IMG/VR virus record: IMGVR_UViG_3300028584_001240
Length of the DNA stretch: 64,000 nt
From: a virus
Taxonomy: Duplodnaviria; Heunggongvirae; Uroviricota; Caudoviricetes
Direction: 5' to 3' (one strand)
Shown here: piece by piece, positions 15,887-62,600 of the stretch
Numbering within the stretch: the first letter of the stretch is position 1
Layout: each line of letters begins with the position of its first letter
The notes under the pieces: generated by a model
Told to the model about the DNA's origin: nothing
What the model saw: only the letters and a program-made list of their open reading frames with translations
Database searches by the model: none
Made by a program: the position numbers and the translations under genes

Positions 15887-15937
15887 GAATTAAATCTCCA
15901 AAATATGGCACAATTATACCATATTTTTAGGGTTAAA

Positions 15938-16771: not shown

Positions 16772-18052
<1,281 letters not shown>

Positions 18053-18090
18053 TCAAATATTCGATATTCTAACACAGTAATACTATTTAT

Positions 18091-18855: not shown

Positions 18856-18873
18856 TTTTTGTGTTTCCTATCA

Positions 18874-21119: not shown

Positions 21120-21142
21120 ATCTGTAACTCCATCATTAAATT

Positions 21143-21952: not shown

Positions 21953-22005
21953 AGGATCTCCAATGAAAGATGACCCATTATATCATAAAAACATGTAAAA
22001 ATAAA

Positions 22006-22749: not shown

Positions 22750-22758
22750 GTAATATCC

Positions 22759-23526: not shown

Positions 23527-23527
23527 A

Positions 23528-27317: not shown

Positions 27318-27334
27318 AAACAACAATAATATTT

Positions 27335-27359
27335 AAAAGGCACTTAGGTGTCTTTTTTT
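27335..27359 (+). terminator. Rho-independent terminator
   Basis: aaAAGGCACttagGTGTCTTttttt (one G-U pair). Confidence 0.75.
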
Positions 27360-27370
27360 AGTTCATTCGA

Positions 27371-27398
27371 TTGTAAAAGAACAACTACATATTATAAT
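27371..27398 (+). promoter_or_regulatory. Putative sigma70 promoter of membrane-protein gene 2
   Basis: TTGTAA, 16 nt, then TATAAT. Confidence 0.5.
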
Positions 27399-27428
27399 AA
27401 TATAAACAACAATCAAAGATGTGTCCTC

Positions 27429-27875
27429 ATGGATGACAACAACCGATATTCAACATTGAATAATATTTATAAAGCGTTAATTTTTATGACGTTTGCAGTG
27501 CCTACACTTTGTTTTTACATTGCGTTTCAATCGTATATACTTGCCATTCTTTTACTACTTTTATTCATTATTGTTCCACATGCCTTAATTTGGACAAAAT
27601 ATTATAAGCTTACTGACCATGACACTTTTCAATTGCATATTAAAAAAATATTGATGGCTTTTTGGATATCCGGTGGGATACTTTTAGTTTCTTTGTTGCC
27701 AATGTTAGTTTTTGTTGGAGCCGATGGTGGTCAACCCACTGGCGGCGAATATCTAATGATGTTCTTAGCAGCAATTGGATGTTTCATAGGGCCAGCGTTT
27801 TCTTGGTCTTATTATGGCTACAAATTGATGAAAAATTATAGTTTACTTGATAAACAAATAAGAGGTGAGATATGA
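27429..27875 (+). CDS. 4-TM membrane protein, tandem paralogue 2 of 3
   Basis: The track's GTG 27348 lies inside the upstream terminator and before the promoter. ATG 27429 (MDDNNRYSTLNNIYKALIF..) aligns with the paralogue N-termini. Confidence 0.75.
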   Translation: MDDNNRYSTLNNIYKALIFMTFAVPTLCFYIAFQSYILAILLLLLFIIVPHALIWTKYYKLTDHDTFQLHIKKILMAFWISGGILLVSLLPMLVFVGADGGQPTGGEYLMMFLAAIGCFIGPAFSWSYYGYKLMKNYSLLDKQIRGEI

Positions 27876-28300
27876 ATAGTTTTAACGAATACGAGTGTTT
27901 AAAGAACATTTATTCAAGAATGATCATGCTCACAGCTATATCACCAATAGCTGTCTTATTTTTTGGCCCATTTTTGTTTTTATATATATTGATACCTAAT
28001 CTTTATATTTATGTTAAATATTATAAAAGACATGGCAATACAAAATTTGAAGGGCATATCAGAAAAATACTTAAAACATGTTTAATTTCGTTAAGTGTTC
28101 TATTTATATTTTTGTTACCACTTATATCAATGGCCTTCATAGACTTTACAAAAATATATCAAGGAACAGCTTATATGATTTTAATGGTAGCAATGATTTG
28201 TGTTGGTGTTGGTCTTTTGATTTCGTGGGCTTATTATTTTCATAACTTAATGAAGCTATCAAAAACTATAGATGAAAATGACTTTAACAAACTTATTTAA
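27872..28300 (+). CDS. 4-TM membrane protein, tandem paralogue 3 of 3
   Basis: 142 aa. ATGA overlap with paralogue 2. GAGGTG SD. Contains NIYSRMIM.., KYYKRHG.. and WAYYFHNLMK. Confidence 0.8.
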   Translation: MNSFNEYECLKNIYSRMIMLTAISPIAVLFFGPFLFLYILIPNLYIYVKYYKRHGNTKFEGHIRKILKTCLISLSVLFIFLLPLISMAFIDFTKIYQGTAYMILMVAMICVGVGLLISWAYYFHNLMKLSKTIDENDFNKLI

Positions 28301-30275: not shown

Positions 30276-31013
30276 TTAAATTTTTTCCATGCTAAGAACG
30301 GTTAAGTATTGTTTAAGCGTTTCTTCATCAAATTCAACAGCGTCAAAACATTCTTCTGGGTAAGCGTCAATCAAGAAGGCTTTAAACTCACTCAGCACAC
30401 CTTCTTTGACTACTTTTTGGGCGACTTCATATAATTCATCGTTACCAAGAATAACAGAGAAATAGCCCTCTTCTGAGAGTGGGAATGTGATTTTAGCCCT
30501 TGGTTGAATGACACCATCTTGAAAATGCAAAAACAACTGAATATAAATACGGGCGTCTTTTAGATTTAATCCACCACTGAATTCCTTAGAGTAGTAATTA
30601 CCCTCTGCAGCGACTCCTGCAAAGGAATCATACTTACTGGTAAACTCTTCACGAAAGACAGCTTTTATATAAGAATCGTCATAACGGTCATGCATTTTGA
30701 AATCACGCATGTAGCTGACGTATGCTTCGCAAATAGAATCTACTTTGTCAAAATCAAAACCAAACGATTTATAAATTTGACGTTCAATCAATGAAAACTT
30801 GGTTTTCAAAACATAGATATCTGAATAGTCTTTAAATAGATTTTTTTCAACATTGATAGGTGTGAAATAATCAAGTTCCGACCATTTTACTGAATACTTT
30901 GTTAACTTTAATGATGTCTCATGAGCACCATTAAATAAAAGTTTATTCGTATCAAATGAATAGGCATTCAAGGTATTAACAAAATCTTTAAGCCCTTCGT
31001 TCATTGTACTCAT
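30276..31013 (-). CDS. Tail-motif paralogue family member
   Basis: 245 aa. Ends ..TLKQYLTVLSMEKI. Confidence 0.8.
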   Translation of the reverse strand: MSTMNEGLKDFVNTLNAYSFDTNKLLFNGAHETSLKLTKYSVKWSELDYFTPINVEKNLFKDYSDIYVLKTKFSLIERQIYKSFGFDFDKVDSICEAYVSYMRDFKMHDRYDDSYIKAVFREEFTSKYDSFAGVAAEGNYYSKEFSGGLNLKDARIYIQLFLHFQDGVIQPRAKITFPLSEEGYFSVILGNDELYEVAQKVVKEGVLSEFKAFLIDAYPEECFDAVEFDEETLKQYLTVLSMEKI

Positions 31014-31429
31014 GAGTTAAAACCTACACTGGATTCTGCTGTTTTAATGGAAACCCAATCCACCAAGGAAAGGACACTGAAATCACACATTTCATTAGTA
31101 ACAATAAAGGAACCCAGTGGGATTTTGAAATCTCCATGAACAAAGACTGAATGGTTTGTTTCAAAGTTAATTTGTTCGTCAAATGAATGCGTGAATGCCG
31201 CCAACGCTTCATCATAGCCAGCCATACCTTCTTCAAGTTTCTGGCAAGCACTCAAATCTTGTTGAACTTGCTCATAAAGATCTCGCCAACGGGTAATGAA
31301 AATAAACAAAGCATTTCTCAACAAATTATCAAATTCAATAACAGAATGATTAGATTCAATAACAATCACTGAAGCTTCGCTATTTTTACCATGATGGGTA
31401 AATGTTCTTGAAATAACAATCTGATTCAT
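31010..31429 (-). CDS. Hypothetical protein
   Basis: 139 aa. ATGA overlap with the downstream family gene. No tail motif and nothing recognisable. Confidence 0.65.
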   Translation of the reverse strand: MNQIVISRTFTHHGKNSEASVIVIESNHSVIEFDNLLRNALFIFITRWRDLYEQVQQDLSACQKLEEGMAGYDEALAAFTHSFDEQINFETNHSVFVHGDFKIPLGSFIVTNEMCDFSVLSLVDWVSIKTAESSVGFNS

Positions 31430-31490
31430 AATACGCTCTCTCTATAAAAATAATGCTTAAATTATAACACAACGATGAATTTTAGGCAAT

Positions 31491-31516
31491 AAAAAAGAAC
31501 CCGTAGGTTCTTTTTT
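31491..31516. terminator. Rho-independent terminator after the SPFH gene
   Basis: aaaaaaGAACCcgtaGGTTCtttttt. Confidence 0.85.
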
Positions 31517-31532
31517 AATTAAGCTTAGTCAA

Positions 31533-32441
31533 TTAAACTTTGTGGTGACCCAACTCAGTAGATCTCAAACCGGCTACCAAACTAGTCAACTCTTTAAGTT
31601 CAGCGTTAGTGCCTGCGTCACTGATAATAAGTGAACCTTTACCGTTTGCAACATCACGTAATGTGTCAAATTTGTTCAATTGAAGAATCATAGCTACTGC
31701 CATTTCATTAGAGATATTCAACGAAGAAGAAAGATTTTCAATCGCTTCATTAAAACCACGACTAATAGCAAGACGTTGATCAGCAATACCTTCACCTTGT
31801 AATTTCTTAGACTCTTTTTGTGCCTGAGCTTCTGCAACAATAGTAATTCTTGAAGCTTCTGCACGGTTCTTGGCAGCTTCTTTTTCACGCTCAGATGCAG
31901 TTACTGAGTTGTATGAGTCTTGAACATCACTGGTTGGAATTGGTTCGTCAACGAGAACCGCAACAATTTTGAAACCAAATTCTTCCATCTTTTTAGACAA
32001 CACTTCTTCAATGACATCTTGAATTTCATCACGAACGCTATAAAGTTCCAAGAATGTTTTCTTACCCACTTCTGAACGAACAAGGTTGCTAACATAACTA
32101 ATGATTTGTGTTTCTGGATCATCAAGTTCATAAGCAGCTTTTTCAGCATCAAGTACATGGTACTGAACGTTTATTGGGTATTTAATAAATAAGTTGTCAT
32201 TAGTTTTCAATTCAAGCACAGTGCTCAATTGTAAAATGTTCAAAGGAACAACTTTATCAACAGCTTGAATCGGCCAAGGAAGTTTAAAAGACAAACCAGC
32301 TTCTTTGATTGCAGAAAACTTACCAAATGTAACAATTACTGAAACATGTTTGTTTTTGGTCAAAACAACACATGAGTAAACTAATAGTCCTATTAATCCT
32401 ACTAATAGTAGTATCATAAAAGCATTTCCGAACATATACAT
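31533..32441 (-). CDS. SPFH / band-7 (stomatin-prohibitin-HflK/C-like) membrane protein
   Basis: N-terminal TM helix (FMILLLVGLIGLLVYSCVV) followed by a typical SPFH core (VIVTFGKFSAIKEAGLSFKLPWPIQ..) and a coiled-coil EAAKNRAEASRI.. region. AGGAG SD. Confidence 0.85.
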   Translation of the reverse strand: MYMFGNAFMILLLVGLIGLLVYSCVVLTKNKHVSVIVTFGKFSAIKEAGLSFKLPWPIQAVDKVVPLNILQLSTVLELKTNDNLFIKYPINVQYHVLDAEKAAYELDDPETQIISYVSNLVRSEVGKKTFLELYSVRDEIQDVIEEVLSKKMEEFGFKIVAVLVDEPIPTSDVQDSYNSVTASEREKEAAKNRAEASRITIVAEAQAQKESKKLQGEGIADQRLAISRGFNEAIENLSSSLNISNEMAVAMILQLNKFDTLRDVANGKGSLIISDAGTNAELKELTSLVAGLRSTELGHHKV

Positions 32442-38095: not shown

Positions 38096-38149
38096 AACAA
38101 GACCTCAAAAAAATAAACCTTATAGAATTATAAGATTTATGTAATAATG

Positions 38150-38224
38150 TTGAAGAGGAAGGATTTGAACCTCCGACATACCCGCCCAAAATGCAGGCTG
38201 CTCTACCCACTGAGCTACCCTTCA
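38150..38224 (-). tRNA. tRNA with non-canonical anticodon arm; anticodon most simply UUU (Lys); CCA not encoded
   Basis: Manual fold of the minus strand: acceptor TGAAGGG/CTCTTCA (U1-A72, one G-U); D arm GCTC-AGTGGGTA-GAGC; anticodon arm GCCTGC-ATTTTGG-GCGGGT (6 bp, or 5 bp with a 9-nt loop); variable ATGTC; T arm GGAGG-TTCAAAT-CCTTC; discriminator A. Confidence 0.7.
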
Positions 38225-38272
38225 AACTCTTTATAAAACAATAGAGCAACTAGGTTACTCTATTTTTTAAAT

Positions 38273-38349
38273 TGGTCGGAGTGGCAGGATTTGAACCTGC
38301 GGCATCTTGCTCCCAAAGCAAGCGGTCTACCGGGCTGACCTACACTCCG
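38273..38349 (-). tRNA. tRNA-Pro (anticodon UGG), CCA encoded
   Basis: Manual cloverleaf: CGGAGTG-TA-GGTC-AGCCCGGTA-GACC-G-CTTGC-TTTGGGA-GCAAG-ATGCC-GCAGG-TTCAAAT-CCTGC-CACTCCG-A-CCA. All stems are Watson-Crick. C1-G72 and G37 are typical of tRNA-Pro. Confidence 0.9.
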
Positions 38350-38362
38350 TTTCGATAAGTAA

Positions 38363-38391
38363 ATAATACGATATTCATACTGCATTGTCAA
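38363..38391 (-). promoter_or_regulatory. Strong sigma70-type promoter of the tRNA transcription unit
   Basis: Minus strand: TTGACA, 17 nt, then TATTAT, ending 13 nt before the tRNA-Pro 5' end. Confidence 0.65.
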
Positions 38392-44614: not shown

Positions 44615-45405
44615 CAAATCAATATATCGTAAAAATACTCAGCTCAAAACATGTCTTTGATGAGACATCTAATAAGGGTGTTGAGAATAAATATTTAACT
44701 GTAAAAACAGAAAATGAAGACTTTAAAAAGTTATTGGATATTAGTGCTATAAACAGCAGATATTATTTTTCAGCGTGCTTAAATATTAAAGATAAAGTTA
44801 CTCAACATCTAAAAGAGACGAATAAAAAATTCGCAGACGTTAGACCTTATCACGCTCCTGATAAAGATGATTGCACGGAATATACAGATGTAAAAAATCA
44901 GAACTCTACTGTATACATGGATTTTATTGAGAACCTTGTTAAAAATGCACATGCAAGAAGTCATTTAACATTTGTGGACTATATTAAAGACATTCATAAA
45001 AAAGCTGACGTTATTTTTTCTCACTTTTTTGACAATGCTAAGATAAGTATCACCTATTTTACAAAACCTATCATGCTTTGTATGAATTTTGATAAAAATG
45101 GATTGAATATTGTCTATATGCTAAATAGTTGTGACAGCAATAAAATGATGTTAGACATTACTATTAATCACAACACTGAAATTATCTCAACAGAAGTTTA
45201 CTTTAATTTTAATAATACAAGATCAAATGAAACAGATATGATTACTTTAAACCATCAACAATTAGATTACCTTATTGTATTAAGTCATTATGCTGACGGT
45301 GAAGAGATTGATTTTATGGTTGAAAAATATGTTGATGACATTTTAGCTGAGAACTATCAAGATTTACTCGATTACATTAAAGTTAAAGAAATGATGCACA
45401 TCTAA
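44611..45405 (+). CDS. Tail-motif paralogue family member (sub-cluster E, 2 of 2)
   Basis: 264 aa. Ends ..LLDYIKVKEMMHI. ATGA overlap with the previous gene. Confidence 0.8.
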   Translation: MTNQYIVKILSSKHVFDETSNKGVENKYLTVKTENEDFKKLLDISAINSRYYFSACLNIKDKVTQHLKETNKKFADVRPYHAPDKDDCTEYTDVKNQNSTVYMDFIENLVKNAHARSHLTFVDYIKDIHKKADVIFSHFFDNAKISITYFTKPIMLCMNFDKNGLNIVYMLNSCDSNKMMLDITINHNTEIISTEVYFNFNNTRSNETDMITLNHQQLDYLIVLSHYADGEEIDFMVEKYVDDILAENYQDLLDYIKVKEMMHI

Positions 45406-45419
45406 TTAACTTTAACTTC

Positions 45420-45453
45420 AAAAAAAAGAACTGTCTATGCAGTTCTTTTTTTT
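45420..45453. terminator. Bidirectional terminator
   Basis: aaaaaaAGAACTGtctatgCAGTTCTttttttt. Confidence 0.8.
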
Positions 45454-45466
45454 GTCGTCCAGTTTT

Positions 45467-45829
45467 TTAAGCTGTTGTAAGACTACGCTCATGTAGTTTT
45501 TTGGCTAAATCTACCAATTTATCATCAAGTTCAACAATACAAACACCCTCAAACAGTTTGGTAACAGCCGAAAAAGCGTTCAACGCATCCATTTTTTTAT
45601 CTTGCATTTCTCTTACAGAGTAAGTGCGAGGTTCAAACCTTGCTACACCTGAATATTCATTAGTATAGAATAAACTAGAAACTTCTGTATTGTCAGATAC
45701 TTTAAAATGTGGAACATTAACAGCATCTAAAATTTTATCAACTTCAGCTCTGTAAGCATTAACCAATGCAGTTGGTGGTGGCGTATATTCAGGAAAAAGA
45801 ACATCGGATATAAATTTTGGTAGCTTCAT
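45467..45829 (-). CDS. Small hypothetical protein, paralogue of 40038..40373
   Basis: 120 aa. See the alignment notes at 40038..40373. Confidence 0.65.
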   Translation of the reverse strand: MKLPKFISDVLFPEYTPPPTALVNAYRAEVDKILDAVNVPHFKVSDNTEVSSLFYTNEYSGVARFEPRTYSVREMQDKKMDALNAFSAVTKLFEGVCIVELDDKLVDLAKKLHERSLTTA

Positions 45830-45917
45830 TATAATCTCCTATTAGAAGCACTATAATAACATAAACAAGCAGAAATGACAATAAAAATGATTAATTGAAA
45901 GAAAAATAAAAAAACTG

Positions 45918-45946
45918 TTGACATTTTTTTAATTAAAGATCACAAT
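45918..45946 (+). promoter_or_regulatory. Putative promoter of the thrS leader
   Basis: TTGACA (45918-45923), 17 nt, then CACAAT (45941-45946). Confidence 0.5.
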
Positions 45947-45969
45947 ATAAGTAATTGGAGAAAATTCAG

Positions 45970-46047
45970 ATGAAATTATTTGCAGTAAACACAACGACTA
46001 CAACAACTCAGTTCAATAGCTGGGCTGGTCGATTGTTGCTGTCTTAA
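45970..46047 (+). CDS. Thr-rich leader peptide of thrS (25 codons)
   Basis: GGAG lies 9 nt upstream. ATG AAA TTA TTT GCA GTA AAC ACA ACG ACT ACA ACA ACT CAG .. TAA gives MKLFAVNTTTTTTQFNSWAGRLLLS. Six consecutive Thr codons occupy 45991-46008. Too short for the ORF track. Confidence 0.75.
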   Translation: MKLFAVNTTTTTTQFNSWAGRLLLS

Positions 46048-46093
46048 AATAATCGGAACCACAAAAACCCAGCTAAACGGCTGGGTTTTTTTA
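46017..46093 (+). promoter_or_regulatory. Transcription attenuator: competing antiterminator and terminator helices
   Basis: TAGCTGGG (46017-46024) is the exact reverse complement of CCCAGCTA (46068-46075). The same CCCAGC (46068-46073) pairs with GCTGGG (46080-46085) to form the terminator. CTCAG (46007-46011), directly after the Thr codons, can pair with CTGGG (46020-46024). Confidence 0.7.
46063..46093 (+). terminator. Intrinsic terminator of the thrS attenuator
   Basis: aaaaaCCCAGCtaaacgGCTGGGtttttttt, 55 nt upstream of the thrS ATG. Confidence 0.8.
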
Positions 46094-46148
46094 TGCCTAA
46101 AATAAATGATTAACACAAACACAAACTAAACTATCAAGGGGAAATAAA

Positions 46149-47327
46149 ATGAACGACAAATTAAATGAAGAAAAGAGATACATGAAAGTCGCCAAAGAAA
46201 TGAACTTATTCATGTTGGCTGAAAGTGCAGGTGTTGTTTACTGGAAACCAGAAGGGCTTAAATTGTATGAGAATTTAAAATCTTTTATTCGTAAACACCA
46301 TGAAGACGCTGGTTATCTTGAAGTCAAGAGTCCATCCATTGTGGTGCCTAGCTTATTTGAGCAGTCTGGTCATATGGATAAATACAAAGATAACATGTTC
46401 TTTCTCAATTCATCAGAAGCCAGTAACTACGCTCTCCGTCCTATGAGCTGTCCCAACCATATCCTAATCTATCAATCAGAAAAAAGAAGCTACCGTGAAC
46501 TCCCATTACCAATATTTGAGTTTGGTGAGGTGTTTCGTAATGAAGCGTCTGGTGCATTACAAGTGTTATTCAGACAAAGACAATTCTGTCAGGATGATAG
46601 TCATGTGTTTGTGAATGAAGAAAATCTAATCAGTTCGGTCAATCAATACATACAGATGAGCCAAAAAGCGTATGAAGAACTCGGATTCAAAAAGATTAAA
46701 TACGCCATTGCGTTACGTCCAGAAAAAAGATTTGGTGATGACATCTTATGGGATAAAGCCGAAGAAGCCTTGCGAGAAGCCTGCAGAATGAATAATCTTG
46801 ATTTCGTAGAAAACGAAAATGACGGGGCTTTCTATGGCCCGAAACTAGAACTCCAAGTAGAAGACAAACTCGGCAGATCATGGCAATTAGGTGTGATACA
46901 GCTTGATTATGTTCTTCCAGAACGTTTTGGACTTGAATACATTGATGCCGATAACAAACCTAAGCGTCCTATTATTCTCCACCATGCCGTATTAGGTTCA
47001 CTTGAACGCATGATAGGGATCTTGTTGGAGTCCTTTGGTAAAGACATACCTGACTTCTTACACCCTATGAAATCAGTGGTTATTCCAGTATCCGAAAAAT
47101 CTATGGAGTATGCAAAGGTCGTATTCTCTCATATGGATAAGAAATCATCTAAACTGGATCAAAGTGCTGATTCATTAGGTAAGAAGATTCGATACTGGAA
47201 AGAACGTGGTGTTCCTGAGATCATTGTAGTCGGTGAAGCTGAACAAAGTAAATATGACAATGAAGGTGTGATTAGTTTTGTCGTCAATCTTGGTGCTGTC
47301 AAAGAAGTCAGAGAAATTAAGCCATAA
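46149..47327 (+). CDS. thrS: Threonyl-tRNA synthetase, catalytic plus anticodon-binding domains only (no N-terminal TGS/editing domains)
   Basis: 392 aa. Aligns by eye with E. coli ThrRS from about residue 242 to the end: RPMSCPNH, YRELPLPIFEFGEVFRNEASGAL..FRQRQFCQDDSHVF, GAFYGPKLE, ILHHAVLGSLERMIGILLE. The Zn ligands (Cys, His, His) are conserved. Confidence 0.93.
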   Translation: MNDKLNEEKRYMKVAKEMNLFMLAESAGVVYWKPEGLKLYENLKSFIRKHHEDAGYLEVKSPSIVVPSLFEQSGHMDKYKDNMFFLNSSEASNYALRPMSCPNHILIYQSEKRSYRELPLPIFEFGEVFRNEASGALQVLFRQRQFCQDDSHVFVNEENLISSVNQYIQMSQKAYEELGFKKIKYAIALRPEKRFGDDILWDKAEEALREACRMNNLDFVENENDGAFYGPKLELQVEDKLGRSWQLGVIQLDYVLPERFGLEYIDADNKPKRPIILHHAVLGSLERMIGILLESFGKDIPDFLHPMKSVVIPVSEKSMEYAKVVFSHMDKKSSKLDQSADSLGKKIRYWKERGVPEIIVVGEAEQSKYDNEGVISFVVNLGAVKEVREIKP

Positions 47328-47348: not shown

Positions 47349-47370
47349 AAAGAGGCTTCGGCCTCTTTTT
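47349..47370. terminator. Bidirectional terminator
   Basis: AAAGAGGCttcgGCCTCTTTtt. Confidence 0.85.
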
Positions 47371-47991
47371 CTATTGATAAAACATAATAACGGCTTTCTT
47401 TTCATCCTCAGACATCTCAGTAACAGTCTTGTCAAGAATGTGTTTAAAATAAGCCTCTCTGAAGGTTTCATTGATAACTCTTATTTGTTCATTGACATTT
47501 TGAAGTTGAGTGTGATTAAATTCAAGTTGAATGTATCCTGTTGGCGTTTGCATCGTCAAGTAAGGTAATGCGAGCGGCTTACTATTGTCAGGTCTAAAAT
47601 AAAATACATTGCTATAATAAAAACTTTTTGTCTCTAATGTATATTTCTCTGGATGTCTTTTATGCTTTTCAATGAGACGAACATTTTCCAAGAAAGTTAA
47701 AAAGAGTTTTCTAGTCTGAATGTGTTCAGAGTAATCAATAACTAAATTATTCTCAGTTATCGCTTTTGAATTAAATTTAACAGTGTTCATGAAAAACATG
47801 TCATATTGATCTATCGTATCTTTATCAAGATGGAAGAAAGCTTCACCCACAATAATAAAGTTATTTTCACTGAGTGCTTTATCAAATGCTATTTTATTAG
47901 AATGTCTATATATTTCACCTTCACAATGTGTGTAAGTGTGTTTTTGATTATCTAATTTATCTCTTAAAAAACGTTTAAAATCCTTAATCAT
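47371..47991 (-). CDS. Tail-motif paralogue family member (sub-cluster B, 4 of 4)
   Basis: 206 aa. Ends ..MSEDEKKAVIMFYQ. Confidence 0.8.
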   Translation of the reverse strand: MIKDFKRFLRDKLDNQKHTYTHCEGEIYRHSNKIAFDKALSENNFIIVGEAFFHLDKDTIDQYDMFFMNTVKFNSKAITENNLVIDYSEHIQTRKLFLTFLENVRLIEKHKRHPEKYTLETKSFYYSNVFYFRPDNSKPLALPYLTMQTPTGYIQLEFNHTQLQNVNEQIRVINETFREAYFKHILDKTVTEMSEDEKKAVIMFYQ

Positions 47992-48000
47992 AAAAAGCCC

Positions 48001-48669
48001 TCAATAGTAATACATCTTAACAATTTGCTTTTCTGATTTAGTAAGCTTCTCTGTCGTGTCCTTTTTGTCAATAAGTTGTGAATAGTACCTAATAAAAAAT
48101 TCATTGTCAATCATTTTAACGGCATTCTCAAAACTATATTCATTGTTTTTTACAATAATATAAAGTTCTGGAAATTCTTTATACTTTTTAAATTTTAAAA
48201 CGATTTTTTGATAGATATTTCCATGTAACGAATGGTAAACATACACTGGATAGATTTCAATATGATCAAGGTTAGCATACACTGGGTTTTTCTTTTTATT
48301 TATTTCATCGCCTTTATTGATAAGACGAAGATGATTTGTAATCACCTTAAAAAATTTTTTAGCATGATAATTATCAACATTCTCAAAATAGACCTTTCTA
48401 GGCGATTCTTTTTTTGATAATAGATTAGGTTTAATGTCGAAAGAGCACTCATGCTCTGAGTCATGTTGGAAATAAGTCAGATTACCAATAGCATAAAATC
48501 TATCATAACCTGATCTTATTTTCGGTGTGCCATCTGGATTTACCGCTTCCTGAACAATAGTGTAACCAGAAGATATTTGATATCTATAATTAATATTACT
48601 GACGGAATGCTTTAAATAGTAATTAAAGGACGCCATATTGTCAGGTAAATCGAATTTTCCTATATCCAT
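48001..48669 (-). CDS. Tail-motif paralogue family member (sub-cluster B, 3 of 4)
   Basis: 222 aa. Ends ..LTKSEKQIVKMYYY. Confidence 0.8.
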   Translation of the reverse strand: MDIGKFDLPDNMASFNYYLKHSVSNINYRYQISSGYTIVQEAVNPDGTPKIRSGYDRFYAIGNLTYFQHDSEHECSFDIKPNLLSKKESPRKVYFENVDNYHAKKFFKVITNHLRLINKGDEINKKKNPVYANLDHIEIYPVYVYHSLHGNIYQKIVLKFKKYKEFPELYIIVKNNEYSFENAVKMIDNEFFIRYYSQLIDKKDTTEKLTKSEKQIVKMYYY

Positions 48670-48673
48670 AATA

Positions 48674-49375
48674 TTAATAGTAAACCATTTTAATCAACTC
48701 TTGTTCTTTTTTGTTAAAGAATTTGCCACGCTCAATTTTTTCACGATCAACAATACCATTATAATAACGTGTTTGAAATGTTTTTTCCATATCATCAATA
48801 GCGGCTAAAAATTTGTTGTCATCATTTAAAATAACAATTTTATGTTCTGGGTAGCCATTGCTTGCTTTAAATTTAAGGAGAGCACATTTACTAACGATTT
48901 GACTAATACGATCATATCTGTAGAAGCACCTAACCATAAGCGATTTTGAATCAAAATTAATAAGTTCACGTTTTTTATGCAAAAGAGTAGCTTCATTTAA
49001 AAGTTTAAGGTGCCGTTTTAATCTCACCCAAAATTCATCAACATGAAACCTATAAACATAATCAAATTTAATAGGTTTACCTGTATCATCTTTTGAAGTG
49101 AGCAGTGTAAAAGAGACTTCGAAATCAGAATCCCAATTACATTCACGACCATTAACAATACTGGCAACCTGATAAAATTTATCATAATACCGAATATGAC
49201 CACTGCCCCAACCAGAAGTTTCATAGACTCTAATTCTATGACCATCAGTCGTTAAGGGATAACGATGAACATAAATGGAATCATCACCATACTCATATTC
49301 GGCATTTGAAAATTTCGAAGAAAAGTATTTTGCAAGTTCAGTCGCTTTATTAATTTCAGTGGAAGGCATAAACAT
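48674..49375 (-). CDS. Tail-motif paralogue family member (sub-cluster B, 2 of 4)
   Basis: Ends ..FNKKEQELIKMVYY. Start moved from TTG 49414 to ATG 49375 (MFMPSTEINK..). HRYPLTTDGHRI matches CRYPLDKEGNRI of the next gene. Confidence 0.75.
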   Translation of the reverse strand: MFMPSTEINKATELAKYFSSKFSNAEYEYGDDSIYVHRYPLTTDGHRIRVYETSGWGSGHIRYYDKFYQVASIVNGRECNWDSDFEVSFTLLTSKDDTGKPIKFDYVYRFHVDEFWVRLKRHLKLLNEATLLHKKRELINFDSKSLMVRCFYRYDRISQIVSKCALLKFKASNGYPEHKIVILNDDNKFLAAIDDMEKTFQTRYYNGIVDREKIERGKFFNKKEQELIKMVYY

Positions 49376-49410
49376 AATAAGAGAACCTTTTTTTAATTTA
49401 AGTAAGTGTA

Positions 49411-50142
49411 TCAATAATAGGTCATTTTTACAAGTTCTTTTAAACGTTCATCCCATTTTGAAATATCCAATAGAGCATAAACATCATCAAAACTCATATT
49501 AGGATAAGCTTCTTTTATTTTGTCTTTGTAATACAGTTTAAAAAACTCAATGTCCATATTTTTTAACGTATTCTGTGTAGTTAACATATTATCCGTTACA
49601 TAGTAGACTGGAAGGATTTCACTAGATGATTTGTTACTTTTCATAAACTGAACAGCTAGAGTTCTTGAAATTTTTTTATTAAGCTGATCATATTTGAAAT
49701 TAAATTTAATTGAAAAGTCGTTGCAGACAATAAATTGATAATCGTCAGAAATATTTTTTTGATTGAGAAGTGTTAAGTGTTGATTAGTATGTTGCATAAA
49801 CAAATCAATCATTGGTGAAGATAAATCACCAAAACGTTCAGAATAAATATCATCGTATTTAGAAGATAATTCAAAAAAAAGTGAACTTGGTGTGTCACCT
49901 TTACCAACATGAGCAATAGTTTCCGACTTAGCGGCTGTGCCACCATACATTCCATAAGTAAAAGGAGCTTCTTTAAGTGCTTCAATAATCCGATTACCCT
50001 CTTTATCTAATGGATAACGACAGATTCCAATTGGATTAGTACCATACTCGTAGTGTTCATTTGTAAAGTTGTTTACAAAATAATCAAGGAATCCATACAA
50101 GGGAAACTGTTTCTTTTTTTCTTCATCAATGACTTCATTCAT
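49411..50142 (-). CDS. Tail-motif paralogue family member (sub-cluster B, 1 of 4)
   Basis: 243 aa. Ends ..WDERLKELVKMTYY. Confidence 0.8.
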   Translation of the reverse strand: MNEVIDEEKKKQFPLYGFLDYFVNNFTNEHYEYGTNPIGICRYPLDKEGNRIIEALKEAPFTYGMYGGTAAKSETIAHVGKGDTPSSLFFELSSKYDDIYSERFGDLSSPMIDLFMQHTNQHLTLLNQKNISDDYQFIVCNDFSIKFNFKYDQLNKKISRTLAVQFMKSNKSSSEILPVYYVTDNMLTTQNTLKNMDIEFFKLYYKDKIKEAYPNMSFDDVYALLDISKWDERLKELVKMTYY

Positions 50143-50164
50143 AGTCGTTCCTTAATTTCGAATG

Positions 50165-50190
50165 CAAAAACGGATGGCCGAAGCCATCCG
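50165..50190 (-). terminator. Rho-independent terminator after the BI-1-like gene
   Basis: Minus strand: CGGATGGCttcgGCCATCCGttttt. Confidence 0.85.
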
Positions 50191-50208
50191 TAAACAGTAA
50201 ACATTTTA

Positions 50209-50859
50209 TCAATCTTTCTTGCCCATAATACTGAGGATTCGCAAGAACAAGTTGATGATGTCCATATACAGTGCAGCGGCTGAGTCTACGGCGTTATCGA
50301 CAGTTTTAGGAAGTGCCGAAGCTTTACCCCAGTCGTAACCGATATAACCACAGAAGATAGCAGCAATAATCCAGTCCATAATGCCCAAGTCCATTTTAAA
50401 CACAAAGGTCAAAATCAATTCAGCAATAATAGATGCCAGCAAACCCCAAAACAGACCTGATGCAATACTCTCAAAGAACTTAGGATAGGCAGTGCCCAAC
50501 ACCATCATAATACACGTTACCACCGTTGTAACCTGCATGGCATTGATAACCAGCTCAGGTGAATACTGTGATGTTACCATATTCACAATCAAACCAAATG
50601 GCACTGCCACAAAGTTAAAACCTATAAAGCTGACAAGAGCGTTATCAGATTTAGTAAACAAATAAATACCAAACAAGCAGCTTGCAAAATAACCAATCAA
50701 GAAAACCCAAATATTAATGGACAACAGACTGGCTACTGGAATGGTTTTAACGATAAAGACGTTCATCAAAAAACCATACAGCAATACAGCACCAATGATA
50801 AAATTATACAATCGTGTAGAAATTGTATTTTCCGAAGCATAAGCCGTAGATGTTTTCAT
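50209..50859 (-). CDS. Bax-inhibitor-1 / YccA-family membrane protein
   Basis: 216 aa, about 7 TM segments. The C-terminal AAALYMDIINLFLRILSIMG is the characteristic BI-1/YccA signature. Confidence 0.8.
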   Translation of the reverse strand: MKTSTAYASENTISTRLYNFIIGAVLLYGFLMNVFIVKTIPVASLLSINIWVFLIGYFASCLFGIYLFTKSDNALVSFIGFNFVAVPFGLIVNMVTSQYSPELVINAMQVTTVVTCIMMVLGTAYPKFFESIASGLFWGLLASIIAELILTFVFKMDLGIMDWIIAAIFCGYIGYDWGKASALPKTVDNAVDSAAALYMDIINLFLRILSIMGKKD

Positions 50860-50928
50860 TTATTTTAAAACTCCAAGTAGTTAATGTTAAGGCCATATTA
50901 TAGCAAAAATCAGACATATTTACAACAA

Positions 50929-51489
50929 TTAAATGCAAATCATGCGAATAACTTCACGTTCTTCTGGTGTCATGCTTGCTAAGGGTTTAATCAATTCTTC
51001 TGGAATAGGTTGACCAAAATAGCTAATGTAATAATCTAACACTTTTCTTTCCATTTCTTCAATATTACTGTCATTTACTTCAAAAAGAGACATGTGATAA
51101 TCACCATATTCAAGCTCGTTAAATTCAAAGAGATGAACCTTTTGAATATGCCCAGATAAATTGATAAAATAATAAGCATACTCATTATAACATTCATCAT
51201 ATTTTTCAGGATTGAAAAACTCATCATAATCTTTAATGATATTATATAGCTTGGACTCAAATGAATATTTTTCTTCAAGATAATTTAAAAAATCACTCCA
51301 ATTGTGATGATCTGGGTTAATGCCAAAAGCATGACCTTCATCCAATGTGATGTGATCAACTAGATTGTGTTCATGGACAAGCTTTGGCCGGGTCAATCTA
51401 AAAGATTTTTTAGTAATCCCTTTCGAGATAAGAAAATCTTTGACCTGTTCATAAATTGTGTCATAGGAAAACTCTTTGGTTTCAATCAT
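50929..51489 (-). CDS. Tail-motif paralogue family member (sub-cluster C, 3 of 3)
   Basis: Ends ..MTPEEREVIRMICI. Start moved from GTG 51498 to ATG 51489 (AAGGTG upstream). YSFESKLYNIIKDYDEFFN matches the next gene. Confidence 0.8.
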   Translation of the reverse strand: MIETKEFSYDTIYEQVKDFLISKGITKKSFRLTRPKLVHEHNLVDHITLDEGHAFGINPDHHNWSDFLNYLEEKYSFESKLYNIIKDYDEFFNPEKYDECYNEYAYYFINLSGHIQKVHLFEFNELEYGDYHMSLFEVNDSNIEEMERKVLDYYISYFGQPIPEELIKPLASMTPEEREVIRMICI

Positions 51490-51555
51490 CAATATCACCT
51501 TTAAAATAGATGAATCATTATAGCATTATAATAACAAAAAATCCACACAATCTAT

Positions 51556-52122
51556 CTAAATATGAATCATTTCAAGTAACGATATTTCTTCTTTTGATAA
51601 TTGACTTAATGGTCTTTTTAATTCTTCTGGTGTGTTGGCATTTCCAAAATACTGAAAATAGTAATCGAAAATTCTAGTTTCTAATGAGCGTAAATTAGTG
51701 TCATCAAATTCAAGAAACTTCATATAATCATTGCCCAACTCAATGTCAGTAAAGTCAAATGAATAAACTTTTCTCAGTCTTTGATCCATATCAAAAGCAT
51801 AATGACCATTAACATAATAACAGTCTTTTCTCGGATGCTTATTAAAAAAGTCATCATAAAAACCCAGTGTTTTTTCAAGGCGGCTCTCAAAAGAATAACG
51901 ATGGTCTAAATATTCAGCCAAAGGTTCACAAAAAGGATGGTTCCATTTGATTTTAAAACAATGCCCCATCGAAATAGTTTGATTATCAAAAATAATTTCA
52001 CGAGTCAGAATCTCTGGAATTGCTGCACAGAAGTCTTCCTTTTTGATAGAATTAATCAAACAAAAAGTTTGAAGAGATTCAAAGACAGTCTCATCAGTAA
52101 ACTTATAGGTTTCAATCGTCAT
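51556..52122 (-). CDS. Tail-motif paralogue family member (sub-cluster C, 2 of 3)
   Basis: 188 aa. Ends ..LSKEEISLLEMIHI. Contains YSFESRLEKTLGFYDDFFN. Confidence 0.8.
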   Translation of the reverse strand: MTIETYKFTDETVFESLQTFCLINSIKKEDFCAAIPEILTREIIFDNQTISMGHCFKIKWNHPFCEPLAEYLDHRYSFESRLEKTLGFYDDFFNKHPRKDCYYVNGHYAFDMDQRLRKVYSFDFTDIELGNDYMKFLEFDDTNLRSLETRIFDYYFQYFGNANTPEELKRPLSQLSKEEISLLEMIHI

Positions 52123-52137
52123 ATAAAACTCCTAGAA

Positions 52138-52758
52138 TCAAAACACATACATCAAAAATACTTTATATTCCTCTGGTGTCATCTTAGTAATAGGTTTTCT
52201 AAGTTCATCAGGTAAATCCGGCATATAACGAATATACGCTCTATTAAAGAATTCCTCAATCATTTCATAGTAAAGCGTATCATCCATGCCTTCATACATA
52301 ATAATTTCAACACCATCATCGTCTTCATTACAACAATCCGTCAATCTAAGCGTTCTAGCCACTTTAAGCAATCCATTTTTATCAAAATAAAAAGCTTCTT
52401 CATAATCATCAAATGGGTCGTCTTGAACATTAAGACTATTAGCAATTTGGTAAATTTTATCCATAATAGGAAAATGGATATCACCATCATTATTCTGTGT
52501 GCAATGTGCGGCTGCTAATTGAGTTAGCTTACGTTCACAGCTTTCAAGTTGCCAAAAAATAGTGAAACAATCCACCGAAATTTTACTGTATTCACAATAG
52601 TTATTATAGGTGGCAACATTCCCCATCACTTCATCAGTGGTATAGACCTTACCGTCTTTAGTAAATGTAATAGTATCTATAAATTTCCTAATATCATCAA
52701 TTGTGTATTCTTTTGAGATTTTAGGGTAGTTAGTATATTGATAAAAGTCGTGTTTCAT
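52138..52758 (-). CDS. Tail-motif paralogue family member (sub-cluster C, 1 of 3)
   Basis: 206 aa. Ends ..MTPEEYKVFLMYVF. Confidence 0.8.
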   Translation of the reverse strand: MKHDFYQYTNYPKISKEYTIDDIRKFIDTITFTKDGKVYTTDEVMGNVATYNNYCEYSKISVDCFTIFWQLESCERKLTQLAAAHCTQNNDGDIHFPIMDKIYQIANSLNVQDDPFDDYEEAFYFDKNGLLKVARTLRLTDCCNEDDDGVEIIMYEGMDDTLYYEMIEEFFNRAYIRYMPDLPDELRKPITKMTPEEYKVFLMYVF

Positions 52759-53618
52759 ATTGTCTCCATCATTAATAAAGCAAGATAACGATCACGCATC
52801 TCAGTATTAGACAAATCAATCTGGTCTTTTTTCAACCCGTAACGTTGCTTAATGATAGGAAGAAGCCTACTGATAAATTGTGCTTCCATGATTTCAGGCA
52901 ATTGGTCTTTATTAATAGGTCGAGACATCGAAATAAGGTCTTCATAAGATCGAGCCGCAAACACTTGTCTAGTAGTATACACTGTATCAGCATAAACATC
53001 CACAATAAAACTGGCCGCATAGTCTTGGTCAAACCAAGTATCTACAATAAATATGGGTTTAAGGTTGTTGTGTTGATCAATATAAAAATGAAGTTGACTT
53101 TTAATCAAAGAAACCTTTATATGGCTGTATCGTTTATTTTTTTTGTAAGCCTGATTAAATTTTAATTGGGCAATGTTACAACGGCAACATACATCATCTT
53201 GGGCATATTTAGATTTAAAAGAAATATAAGCCACAGGATTTGCAGCTACTGTTTCAAAATCATTCTGCACAATAGACAATATGCCAGATGAAGACATATT
53301 TTTAGCAACATCAATATAAGCTTTTAATACATTGTCAACAGTTTCTCTTTTGATGTTAAAGGCTTTGCAGAAAGTGTGTTCAAACTCATTACGATCTTCT
53401 TTTACAAAGTGATCGACTTTAAAGATTGCACGATTTTTATGAATAAAAACATTAAAGTGACTGTCTGTATTAGTGATTTTAAATTCAAACTGTCCAAAAG
53501 TGCCGGGAACACTTCCGCCTTCTGATGGCGTGTTGATAGCTACATGGGAACTGAGAGCTTGATGTATGTGATCAGCAAAAATTTCTTCTGGCCGTAGACT
53601 GTTTGTAATAGATTGCAT
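52755..53618 (-). CDS. Tail-motif paralogue family member
   Basis: 287 aa. Ends ..EMRDRYLALLMMETI. ATGA overlap with the downstream gene. Confidence 0.8.
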   Translation of the reverse strand: MQSITNSLRPEEIFADHIHQALSSHVAINTPSEGGSVPGTFGQFEFKITNTDSHFNVFIHKNRAIFKVDHFVKEDRNEFEHTFCKAFNIKRETVDNVLKAYIDVAKNMSSSGILSIVQNDFETVAANPVAYISFKSKYAQDDVCCRCNIAQLKFNQAYKKNKRYSHIKVSLIKSQLHFYIDQHNNLKPIFIVDTWFDQDYAASFIVDVYADTVYTTRQVFAARSYEDLISMSRPINKDQLPEIMEAQFISRLLPIIKQRYGLKKDQIDLSNTEMRDRYLALLMMETI

Positions 53619-60912: not shown

Positions 60913-61692
60913 TCAAATATAAGACATTCTGATAAGATCAAGCTCTCTTTTATTAAACATCTTATTGGTTCTTAAAAAATGAGTAAAGCTACTACCATAC
61001 AGTTTAGTCACACTTATCTCACATGTTTTAAGAATATCACTCAGTAAAATAGATTCCAGTTCACCTGATTTAAAGACAAAATAATGCACATCATAAATAT
61101 TAACATCGTGTAAAGTGGTGCCATCTTCTTGAAGTATGCTTTTAATGGGGCGTTCAACCACCATAGGCACTGTGCCATTAATACCTTTCTGCAAAGGTCT
61201 GCAGTCTTCCAAGAAATACCAAATTTGGTCGATTTTAAACGTGGTATCATCAATTTCATATGACATGCTTTTTAAATAAAGATCTTTTAACAATCTTTTA
61301 GGTTTTGCAAATTTAATCATCCGTGGCAATCCTGACGGACTAAATGCTATGTTATATGACAAAGAATATTCGCTTCCTTTTTCAAAGGATGCACTAGTTA
61401 TTACAAAATAGGATTGCTCTTTTTTATCAACAACCGCCGAGGCAAGTTCAAGGACACATCCTTTGTTATTACTATATCTATAAATAATTTCATTAACTTC
61501 AAACCCAATATCATTAAAAAATTGATTGAGTTCATCCGTGTCCAAGTCAAACTTCAAGCAATAATTTGAACTTTCAATAATATTCATAACCAGCGGTTTG
61601 TATTCTTCACAGTTTTCTTTATTGATTAGATAATGATCAACATAATGAAATTCAATTCTAGATAAGTAATCTTCTTCAGTAGCTTCTGGCAT
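60913..61692 (-). CDS. Tail-motif paralogue family member (sub-cluster D)
   Basis: 259 aa. Ends ..FNKRELDLIRMSYI. LQKGINGTVPMVVERPIK and VNIYDVHYFVF are shared with 61714.. and 63338... Confidence 0.8.
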   Translation of the reverse strand: MPEATEEDYLSRIEFHYVDHYLINKENCEEYKPLVMNIIESSNYCLKFDLDTDELNQFFNDIGFEVNEIIYRYSNNKGCVLELASAVVDKKEQSYFVITSASFEKGSEYSLSYNIAFSPSGLPRMIKFAKPKRLLKDLYLKSMSYEIDDTTFKIDQIWYFLEDCRPLQKGINGTVPMVVERPIKSILQEDGTTLHDVNIYDVHYFVFKSGELESILLSDILKTCEISVTKLYGSSFTHFLRTNKMFNKRELDLIRMSYI

Positions 61693-61713
61693 ATTTAACT
61701 CCCTAAATCGTAT

Positions 61714-62484
61714 TTAGATATACATCATCTCAATGATATCCCGCTCTCTTTTAGTAAACATTTTAGACATAGTAAGAAAATCAGTGTAATCAGTGCCATA
61801 CATTCTAGCACAACTAAAATCACACTGTGTTAATATATCAATCAGTCGAACTTCCTTAGATTTACCATGTACAGTATAGTAAACATCATAGATATTTACA
61901 TTGTAAAATGACTGAGTGTTTTCAACAATTCTTTTTAATGGATGTTCAATAATCATTGTTATATAGCCATTAATACCTTTTTGTAGCTTTCTGTTATCGT
62001 TAAAACAATAACCAATTTGGTCGATCTTAAGAGTATCACAGTCTATGATATAATGAATAGATTTAAGGGTAAGTCCTTTCAATATTTTGTTTGCTGATTT
62101 AAATGTTCGAGAAACAGCAACACCTTGTAAATTGTAAGACGTAAAATAACTGTGAACGTAACGATCATTCTTAGTAAACTCAACCCATTGCAAGACATAG
62201 CGGTCTTGTACAACCTCACCCTCAATGACAGCAGTTAAATCAATCTCACATCCTTGGTTGTCATTGAATTTCAACGTATTTTCTTCAGATAAAAATCCAG
62301 ATAATGAGAGAAATTCATTCAATTGTGCTCGTTTTAAATCAAATTTTATGATGTAAGAATAATCTTTCAACATCTCAATGAGATTGTCTTTGTATTCATG
62401 CATATTATTTTCGTTAATAATATGTGTCTCCAAATAACGATATTCAATTTTGGCTTCTAACTTGGTAGGTTTTAGTGTATTCAT
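61714..62484 (-). CDS. Tail-motif paralogue family member (sub-cluster D)
   Basis: Ends ..FTKRERDIIEMMYI. Start moved from GTG 62496 to ATG 62484, so that IEYRY aligns with IEFHY of 60913... Confidence 0.8.
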   Translation of the reverse strand: MNTLKPTKLEAKIEYRYLETHIINENNMHEYKDNLIEMLKDYSYIIKFDLKRAQLNEFLSLSGFLSEENTLKFNDNQGCEIDLTAVIEGEVVQDRYVLQWVEFTKNDRYVHSYFTSYNLQGVAVSRTFKSANKILKGLTLKSIHYIIDCDTLKIDQIGYCFNDNRKLQKGINGYITMIIEHPLKRIVENTQSFYNVNIYDVYYTVHGKSKEVRLIDILTQCDFSCARMYGTDYTDFLTMSKMFTKRERDIIEMMYI

Positions 62485-62600
62485 AACAATCGTCACTCAA
62501 TAATTCTTTGTATATTATACTATTTTACTTAATAAATCAATTGAAATGTTGATTTTCTTTTTTAATTTGTTATCCTATGCCTAAGAAAAGGATACTGACC

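Follow-up and report, generated by a model that had tools for sequence, protein, structure and literature searches.

The 64,000-nt stretch of DNA analysed here (IMG/VR record IMGVR_UViG_3300028584_001240; the whole stretch at its full length is called the window) carries on its + strand a gene for a threonyl-tRNA synthetase (ThrRS), thrS, which extends from an ATG at 46149 to position 47327 and encodes 392 aa. The subject of the analysis is the leader of this gene at 45918-46148 (+ strand), in which a short open reading frame (ORF) with a run of threonine (Thr) codons is followed by alternative RNA helices that would constitute a transcription attenuator. Positions are given on the + strand unless stated differently.

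The leader starts with a sigma-70-type promoter (45918-45946) composed of TTGACA (45918-45923), a 17-nt spacer and CACAAT (45941-45946), which was also listed by a promoter scan with 10 of 12 matches. A GGAG Shine-Dalgarno (SD) motif, read from the sequence at 45957-45960, is located 9 nt 5′ of the ATG (45970) of the leader ORF (45970-46047), a frame of 25 codons encoding MKLFAVNTTTTTTQFNSWAGRLLLS followed by a stop. Six consecutive Thr codons, ACA ACG ACT ACA ACA ACT (45991-46008), form the proposed stall site. Region 1 (CTCAGTT, 46007-46013) represents the 5′ strand of an anti-antiterminator (1:2) hairpin, region 2 (TAGCTGGG, 46017-46024; within the leader ORF and 8 nt 3′ of the last Thr codon) the 5′ strand of the antiterminator, and region 3 (CCCAGCTA, 46068-46075) both the 3′ strand of the antiterminator and, with its CCCAGC, the 5′ arm of the terminator. 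Regions 2 and 3 are exact reverse complements and thus give a perfect 2:3 helix of 8 bp; it encloses an inner hairpin (46026-46061), the loop of which holds the leader stop codon TAA (46045-46047). The intrinsic terminator (46063-46092) consists of A5, CCCAGC, the loop TAAACG, GCTGGG and T7, and in its stem CCCAGC (46068-46073) is paired with GCTGGG (46080-46085; region 4). Antiterminator and terminator share region 3 and are mutually exclusive. From the predicted start to the U-run the leader RNA has a length of approximately 140 nt, and the part from the ORF start to the U-run measures 123 nt. The SD motif of thrS (AGGGGA, 46137-46142), 6 nt 5′ of its ATG, lies outside the leader structures in the fold, unpaired and 45 nt past the terminator hairpin.

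Most of these elements had been described in a first-pass annotation of the sequence, and the promoter, the GGAG motif, the 25-codon ORF, the six Thr codons, the perfect complementarity of 46017-46024 and 46068-46075 and the CCCAGC:GCTGGG stem were all confirmed at their coordinates. Some details had to be corrected: the terminator tail, given as eight T, is a run of seven (46086-46092), and it ends 56 nt and not 55 nt 5′ of the thrS ATG. The pentamer CTCAG (46007-46011) can indeed pair with CTGGG (46020-46024), with one G-U pair, but it had been placed immediately 3′ of the Thr run, with the last codon of which it in fact shares 2 nt. In the minimum-energy fold the 1:2 helix is extended, with the Thr codons paired to GGTCGATTGTTG (46027-46038).

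Folding energies were calculated with ViennaRNA and expressed as z-scores relative to shuffled sequences. The whole 123-nt leader folds at -37.9 kcal/mol (z = -5.1), and none of 200 shuffles folded as well. Values of -16.4 kcal/mol (z = -5.0) were obtained for the terminator hairpin, -21.5 kcal/mol (z = -4.7) for the antiterminator fold (46013-46079) and -12.8 kcal/mol (z = -2.0) for the 1:2 hairpin. Thr accounts for 5.3% of the codons in the genes of the window, and six consecutive Thr codons at a given place are expected with p ~2e-8. On both strands of the 64 kb, the leader ORF is the sole short ORF which combines a run of at least six identical residues with a GGAG site, all other runs of identical residues in short ORFs being 4-5 residues long. 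The leader hairpin was not listed by a simple terminator scan of the window, because its A5 tract pairs with the U-run, which extends the stem and leaves too few tail T.

For the comparative analysis, 12 distinct members of the clade of this ThrRS were used (56-100% ThrRS identity, leader guanine-plus-cytosine (GC) content 28-62%); these represent all clade thrS neighbourhoods that were fetched, and two of them are GC-rich, with leaders of ~61% GC. In all 12, an ORF 20-26 codons long, in which 5-9 Thr codons form a run, is located 153-185 nt 5′ of thrS, and after it comes a GC hairpin with a U-run that ends at least ~33 nt 5′ of the thrS ATG. The conservation of the ORF and of the terminator and antiterminator upstream of thrS in related genomes, named in the first-pass annotation as a point on which its reading would stand or fall, was thus found in 12/12 clade members. 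The Thr run, sometimes broken by Ile or Val, is the only conserved part of the peptide, and the flanking residues differ among the members (for example MHIVKNTTTTTTTQIEAGLVRYCR, MNKFVFNTTTTTTLLKAGLVGYCLE, MFNFIAITTTTTTTCQNTGQVVTCLR, MYFSFATTTTTTTTALRPVAERTRT and MNFRTTTTTTTTTGFGPRGG). In alignment A3, a MAFFT alignment of the leaders, the Thr codons are fully or almost fully conserved at their first and second positions and at none of their third positions, which amounts to a 3-nt periodicity. The choice of Thr codon tracks the genome composition, with ACA/ACT in the AT-rich and ACC/ACG in the GC-rich members. A scan of the 60 nt 5′ of the leader ATG revealed a sigma-70-like pair with a 17-nt spacer in 11/12 sequences (scores 8-11 of 12), starting with TTGAC(A/T) or TTGATA in eight members, and a purine-rich SD-like motif precedes the leader ATG in 9/12.

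The terminator and the antiterminator are likewise retained. Unconstrained minimum-energy folds show the terminator in every one of the 12 sequences, and in 11 of them the Thr codons or adjoining bases pair with part of region 2 and the G/U-rich stretch that follows it; the exception is L179, where region 2 has the 5′ arm of the terminator as its partner. The constrained fold of the alternative pairings proposed in the first-pass annotation was performed with a 30-nt ribosome footprint masked, the third Thr codon in the aminoacyl (A) site and the RNA cut before region 4. Under these settings the 5′ arm of the terminator pairs upstream, with region 2, in 11/12 sequences. The best duplex with this arm begins 4-12 nt after the last Thr codon in all 12, and in each of them it exceeds shuffled sequences, of which a fraction of 0-0.11 was equally good. 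Regions 2 and 3 co-vary, the pairs including GCUGGG:CCCAGC, CUGGGC:GCCCAG, UGCUGG:CCAGCA, GCUGGGCU:AGCCUAGC and CGGGCC:GGCCCG.

In A3, 97.2% of the cells of the terminator helix are paired over the 12 sequences, with compensatory changes in 7 of 9 pairs, and none of 500 shuffles was as good. For the antiterminator helix 86.5% of the cells are paired, compared with 18-54% when the partner was slid, 12 cells are changed on both sides, and again 0/500 shuffles reached this value. Covariation of all three helices had been proposed as a check; it was observed for the terminator and the antiterminator, and for the 5-bp 1:2 helix the comparative signal is weak, with 72.8% of the cells paired versus 63.9% after sliding by one column and 20/500 shuffles as good. 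The terminator loop varies freely (UAAACG, UAAAU, CAUGU, AAUU, UUAG, AUAU, GAAA, AGAU).

A covariance model, R1, was built from the 12 leaders. It scores 111.9 bits at the window leader, which is one of its own training sequences, and nothing above 23.2 bits elsewhere in the 64 kb. The control set was made up of 141 distinct thrS loci from outside the clade for which ≥200 nt of upstream sequence were available, covering full-length bacterial and short huge-phage genes. The element is absent from these loci, six of which (GC-rich, cellular) carry a different Thr leader with a terminator. On 501 kb of non-clade thrS loci R1 gave a single match at E ≤ 0.001 (L011, 25.8 bits). The Thr-rich ORF of L144/L138 was rejected and not counted, as it is the C-terminal tail of a ~63-aa protein and has no clear terminator.

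Taken together, the conservation in 12/12 clade members, the compensatory changes and the codon periodicity strongly support the core of the first-pass annotation, namely that a Thr-codon attenuator precedes thrS. Judged from the sequences, the leader is very probably a ribosome-mediated leader-peptide transcription attenuator by which the level of a ThrRS without editing domain would be set according to the supply of charged tRNA-Thr. Translation of the leader ORF, stalling at the Thr codons, kinetic competition between the helices, the response to tRNA charging and its outcome for thrS are inferred from these features, and the following course of events is proposed. Transcription would start ~7 nt after the -10 hexamer, and a ribosome would load at the GGAG/ATG and trail the RNA polymerase; SD motifs, sigma-70-like promoters and intrinsic terminators in the window indicate that coupled transcription and translation is available. 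With ample Thr-tRNA-Thr, the ribosome would pass the six Thr codons and region 2 and reach the stop codon, region 2 would be covered or re-paired with region 1, and regions 3 and 4 would form the hairpin followed by U7, so that transcription would stop 56 nt before thrS. With scarce Thr-tRNA-Thr, a ribosome stalled on the early Thr codons would cover region 1 and leave region 2, 8 nt past the run, free to capture the emerging region 3 before region 4 is made. The 2:3 pairing would block the terminator, and the polymerase would read through to thrS. The net effect would be a negative feedback loop in which low ThrRS activity leads to more ThrRS.

Several observations weigh against this interpretation. 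The -10 hexamer CACAAT is a poor one (CATAAT is found at this position in L005, a 98% relative), and no obvious SD motif precedes the leader ATG in L179 and the two GC-rich relatives. The 12 lineages were sampled from at least 120 clusters at 90% identity, and the covariation support for the 1:2 helix is, as described above, weak. With region 1 masked, the full-length RNA still favours the terminator thermodynamically (-26.5 versus -21.5 kcal/mol), so a kinetic switch is required, like that of the trp paradigm. Region 2 is followed by the leader stop codon at a distance of 21 nt; a ribosome at the stop would therefore not cover region 2, and termination at high Thr would rest on timing or on re-pairing of regions 1 and 2.

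Other explanations of the locus were weighed against the same data. The hairpin could act constitutively, as an insulator or a leaky terminator, or it could mark where a small independent transcript (for a micro-protein or a small RNA, sRNA) ends, with the Thr run as a feature of the micropeptide instead of a sensor and with thrS expressed by read-through or from its own promoter. In L004, L174 and L175 the upstream gene is co-directional, so that the terminator could serve that gene too, and with its A-tract the hairpin looks bidirectional, with weak Rfam sRNA-terminator matches on the minus strand. In the window, L005, L006 and L168, however, the gene on the upstream side is transcribed divergently; the terminator of the window sits between divergent genes and 3′ of the promoter, which leaves only the leader transcript for it to end, and no promoter-like site was listed between terminator and thrS by the promoter scan of the window. 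Moreover, a leaky terminator leaves unexplained that the peptide is conserved in its Thr codons only, that a covarying complementary strand follows 4-12 nt after the run, and that the element is constantly paired with thrS. This explanation is accordingly regarded as highly improbable.

A comparably slight probability is assigned to the same switch working with another input (a poly-Thr arrest peptide or drug-dependent stalling) or with a Rho-dependent or translational output. Leader-peptide stalling switches with other inputs, of the ermC and mgtA types, are established knowledge, and the thermodynamic preference of the full-length RNA for the terminator even with region 1 masked would fit such a variant. 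Against it, the gene under control codes for the very enzyme by which the tRNAs for the repeated codons are charged; the Thr codons range from 5 to 9 in number, with occasional interruptions by Ile or Val, a pattern that agrees better with counting of codons than with a specific arrest peptide; and the canonical hairpin with U-run is conserved. Hardly probable at all, and by the sequence already largely excluded, is autoregulation by ThrRS through a tRNA-Thr-like leader element of the E. coli type or T-box-like sensing of uncharged tRNA-Thr: control of thrS by ThrRS binding in E. coli (mentioned in PMC2965389) and by T-boxes in Firmicutes is established, but at 45400-46600 neither the T-box (RF00230, with its stem I specifier and antiterminator bulge) nor another Rfam family was found at E ≤ 10 beyond sub-threshold leader matches, a leader RNA of only ~140 nt is too short for a T-box, the varying terminator loop provides no conserved anticodon-like loop, ThrRS has no N-terminal domains, and the thrS SD motif is unpaired at 45 nt past the hairpin.

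The attenuator proposed for thrS was further compared with known systems. In an E-value scan of 45400-46600 against Rfam, only sub-threshold matches to Phe_leader (RF01859, 22.3 bits) and Thr_leader (RF00506, 18.5 bits), each with a gathering threshold of 55, and to terminator-like sRNAs were obtained; scans at gathering thresholds over the whole window and 10 related loci returned two tRNAs only. E. coli-type thrS operator features were likewise not found in the leader, where the loops are not conserved and the SD motif is unpaired, and the ThrRS aligns only to residues 242-601. By sequence the leader is homologous to neither Thr_leader nor Phe_leader of Rfam, and it is neither a T-box nor an E. 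coli-type thrS operator. In its logic it resembles the E. coli thr, pheST and trp attenuators. The thr operon attenuator (thrL) also comprises a short Thr-rich leader ORF, overlapping 2:3 and 3:4 helices and an intrinsic terminator, together with a 1:2 helix like the one predicted for the window leader, and it senses charged tRNA-Thr through the ribosome, as is proposed for the window leader. In contrast to the window leader, which precedes a synthetase gene, thrL controls the biosynthesis genes thrABC and counts Ile codons too, and homology between the two leaders was not detectable.

Genes for aminoacyl-tRNA synthetases (aaRS) behind attenuators have been described with pheST in gamma-proteobacteria and with leuS and trpS in Streptomyces (PMC1262725). 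As in the window, in E. coli pheST (leader pheM) and Streptomyces leuS and trpS a cognate-codon leader with terminator and antiterminator precedes the aaRS gene, and the feedback logic on charging capacity is the one proposed for the window leader; these systems differ in their amino acids and in their location on cellular chromosomes. The E. coli thrS operator and the T-boxes of Bacillus thrS and thrZ share the regulated gene with the window leader, and the Bacillus T-box moreover its proposed signal (uncharged tRNA-Thr) and output (antitermination). The difference lies in the sensor, since a protein or a tRNA binds the leader RNA directly in these two systems, whereas in the window leader the translating ribosome would sense.

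The first-pass annotation also stated that no Thr leader controlling a thrS gene was known, which proved too strong. On the basis of RNA-seq data, attenuators have been proposed for alaS, leuS, trpS and thrS of S. lividans (PMC8079986). The thrL-thrS leader of this organism has two Thr codons only (MKRVRPFLETTPGFVPAR), is part of a leaderless transcript and has one hairpin and no U-run; termination was called unclear by the authors, and comparative evidence was not given (PMC8079986). It shares with the clade element the short ORF before thrS and the proposed Thr-dependent attenuation, but in the clade element there are 5-9 consecutive Thr codons, the terminator is canonical and the antiterminator covaries. 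In addition, six GC-rich metagenomic loci (L011, L030, L057, L020, L080, L039) possess a leader M(T/R)P(R/P)TTT... with 3-4 Thr codons and a terminator AAAGCGCGGC...CCGCGCTTTTT 30-90 nt before thrS, with ATGACACCGCGAACTAC as conserved nucleotides; in L011 this leader is located at 1655-1786. As in the clade, a short Thr ORF and then a terminator precede thrS, but here the ThrRS is full-length (633-649 aa), the metagenomic contigs have 60-67% GC, the Thr codons follow directly after the start codon, and the sequence family is another one. No Rfam family matches these leaders, which are candidates for a second, unrelated family of thrS leaders.

The mechanism itself is textbook; what is new is the regulated gene, thrS, and its setting on a huge-phage-like replicon. 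In the literature searched, coverage of which was incomplete, neither a thrS attenuator with a Thr run nor a leader-peptide attenuator of a phage was found, and the corresponding remark of the first-pass annotation that no amino-acid attenuator was known in a phage stands within this scope. The element would thus be the first well-supported case of ThrRS control by a Thr-codon leader attenuator and, per the searched literature, the first leader-peptide attenuator of the amino-acid type to be known from a phage-like genome. Its presence would imply that the aaRS genes of such elements are not simply constitutive and that feedback on tRNA-Thr charging is exerted via the host ribosome, which would give a concrete, testable handle on the question why huge phages carry translation genes. 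As promoter, SD motif and terminator are E. coli-like, the unit should be directly testable in a standard reporter system.

The regulated ORF at 46149-47327 is, judged by sequence, a genuine threonyl-tRNA synthetase. It matches the Pfam families PF00587 (class II core) and PF03129 (anticodon-binding), scores 392.4 bits against NCBIfam TIGR00418 thrS (cut-off 383.65), aligns with residues 242-601 of E. coli ThrRS (1qf6) and has kept the Zn-ligand motifs RPMSCPNH, QDDSHVF and ILHHA. The protein consists of the catalytic core and the anticodon-binding domain and is without the N-terminal TGS and editing domains; it should charge tRNA-Thr yet not clear Ser-tRNA-Thr. This short form of ThrRS (386-435 aa, without TGS and editing domains) is also present on many IMG/VR contigs, mostly of 288-578 kb; the loci are, besides window 46149-47327, L090, L135, L141, L138 and L158-L167. 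The N-terminal domains of E. coli ThrRS are needed for the operator mechanism, in which ribosome binding is blocked. An N-terminally truncated ThrRS would be barred from this route, and this may be why attenuation is used in the clade. The transcription unit of thrS is closed by a terminator at 47349-47368 (+), detected by the terminator scan and shared with a convergent gene (47371-47991).

The assignment of the window to a phage, as made in the first-pass annotation, is plausible. The window is 90% coding under table 11, 42 of 75 ORFs have an SD motif in front of them, and the expression signals include sigma-70-like promoters as well as terminators composed of a GC-hairpin and a T-run. ORFs without recognisable relatives (ORFans) make up ~80%, and only ~14/73 ORFs have any Pfam match. 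Recognisable genes encode TyrRS, SerRS, ThrRS, a divergent NAD-ligase, a NUDIX protein, an SPFH/NfeD pair, Bax1-I and two tRNAs. In favour of a phage, jumbo phages (235-735 kb) supply the best matches in the phage database for a 364-aa protein, a 714-aa protein has matches only in uncultured phages of 634-642 kb, and in IMG/VR the relative with 85% ThrRS identity is catalogued as a viral contig of 437 kb (UViG_3300031133_000383). Against the label, capsid and terminase genes were not recognised among the 73 ORFs of the window, the exact ThrRS of the window is found on a 1,851,360-bp JGI contig, and clade relatives are located on contigs of 1.54, 1.36, 1.33 and 1.04 Mb. A PHROG match to 'portal' (E = 1.9e-9) is weak and tied to no particular ORF, and one to 'tail' has E = 1.5e-4. 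For the NAD-ligase, identity to matches in the phage-record collection, in which mis-deposited bacterial sequence is also present, does not exceed 29%.

Near-identical DNA was not found in INPHARED phages. With the single ThrRS as query, a scan of GTDB genomes gave only unrelated Trueperaceae thrS (33% identity) and a scan of IMG/VR no match; with an alignment as query, one close relative was obtained from IMG/VR. A eukaryotic giant virus, suggested by the Mb contigs, the many aaRS genes, the NAD-ligase and the ORFans, was rejected on account of the SD motifs, sigma-70 promoters, intrinsic terminators and the attenuator. An ordinary bacterial chromosome is unlikely, given the ~14/73 ORFs with a Pfam match and a ligase at most 29% identical to matches in the phage-record collection. 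Among published phage genomes, the largest in the literature searched measures 841 kb (doi 10.1101/2025.01.14.633092), and a genome size >1 Mb is, according to a 2026 review, so far restricted to Nucleocytoviricota (PMC13598248). If the Mb contigs are real single replicons, they would be far larger than any published phage. The window and L004 and L168, which are neighbourhoods on Mb-size contigs, are dominated by ORFans and show bacterial expression signals. A conserved attenuator, which depends on coupled transcription and translation, would be evidence that such ORFan-rich replicons of 0.4-1.85 Mb replicate in bacteria.

The same architecture is, by sequence, present in a catalogued huge phage. 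R1 matches the 288-kb IMG/VR contig UViG_3300012582_000005 (L141/L180) at 39.8 bits. On this contig, the segment L141 4729-4853 (identical to L180 10856-10980) contains a leader ORF encoding MKTIAMIIRMRIIRPKMLG and a stop, with AGA three times, ATT/ATA five times and ATG four times, followed by GCTTGGG and AACCCAAGC-AAATAA-AGCTTGGGTTTTTT as antiterminator and terminator. The unit directly precedes genes for tRNA-Arg(TCT), tRNA-Ile(GAT) and tRNA-Met(CAT), the anticodons of which match the enriched leader codons. In a second unit (L141 ~2273-2410), a Thr/Asn-rich leader ORF (MTTIIRNMNNNINRTRTTLG... and a stop), an antiterminator and a terminator are followed by tRNA-Thr(GGT), ThrRS, tRNA-Asn(GTT) and tRNA-Thr(TGT), again with agreement between the tRNA anticodons and the codons enriched in the leader. 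The arrangement suggests that the L141 units are attenuators which gate tRNA genes by their own codons, and to our knowledge there is no precedent for attenuators gating tRNA genes by the codons those tRNAs read. If they hold, the mechanism would reach a new class of regulated genes. It is conceivable, if somewhat short of probable, that huge phages, perhaps including replicons >1 Mb, carry a family of codon-specific attenuators by which the supply of charged tRNA is sensed and their own tRNA and aaRS genes are adjusted; the thrS attenuator of the window would be one member of such a family, with two more on UViG_3300012582_000005.

Unusually long (88-nt) tRNA-Asn and tRNA-Thr genes flank the phage ThrRS of L141; at 1661-1736, 3650-3737 and 3743-3830 ARAGORN reported a tRNA with a two-base anticodon call and these 88-nt tRNA-Asn and tRNA-Thr genes. 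In L090 (~2370-2488), on a 455-kb IMG/VR contig, a 5-codon ORF (MTRTTS and a stop) with an AGGAG site is followed by an 11-bp hairpin (CCATCCAGCAA...TTGTTGGATGG) with no clear U-run, a short distance 5′ of the gene for a 393-aa ThrRS; it may be another Thr-sensing leader.

Cognate leaders of other aaRS genes were also considered and rejected. The TyrRS gene of the window (2134-3408, - strand) is preceded by a 230-nt leader (3409-3640, - strand) behind a TTGCTT-17-TAGAAT promoter; the ORF of this leader, MNASKTFHFQKSFTVRY followed by a stop, is not Tyr-rich and has a single terminal Tyr codon, and neither an obvious terminator nor an Rfam match was found in the 230 nt. Only 47 nt are available upstream of the SerRS gene in the window, and the ArgRS gene is without a leader in both L171 and L179. 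In L179, the region upstream of the ArgRS gene (5436-5570) is filled by a tandem unit of ~15 nt (TAAAATATAAGTTAT-like). The tRNA genes of the window, tRNA-Pro(TGG) and tRNA-Lys(TTT) at 38149-38391 (- strand), follow directly on a strong TTGACA-17-TATTAT promoter, and a leader ORF is absent, so that tRNA-gene attenuators of the L141 type are not used there.

Additional features of the window lie apart from the thrS locus. An SPFH/Band-7 protein and an NfeD/ClpP-like S49 protease are encoded at 31010-32441 (- strand) in an operon of cellular type amid ORFans; the PHROGs label 'head maturation protease' for the S49 protease may mislead. At 11813-24142 and 47371-53618 (- strand), ORFs of ~190-300 aa that lack a Pfam match follow one another on the same strand in long arrays. 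By BLASTP, only small tandem paralogue groups were linked, at 18091-20385 (three ORFs), 48001-50142 (three), 26877-28300 (three) and 60913-62496 (two), and the SerRS gene (16772-18043) is embedded in one of the ORF arrays.

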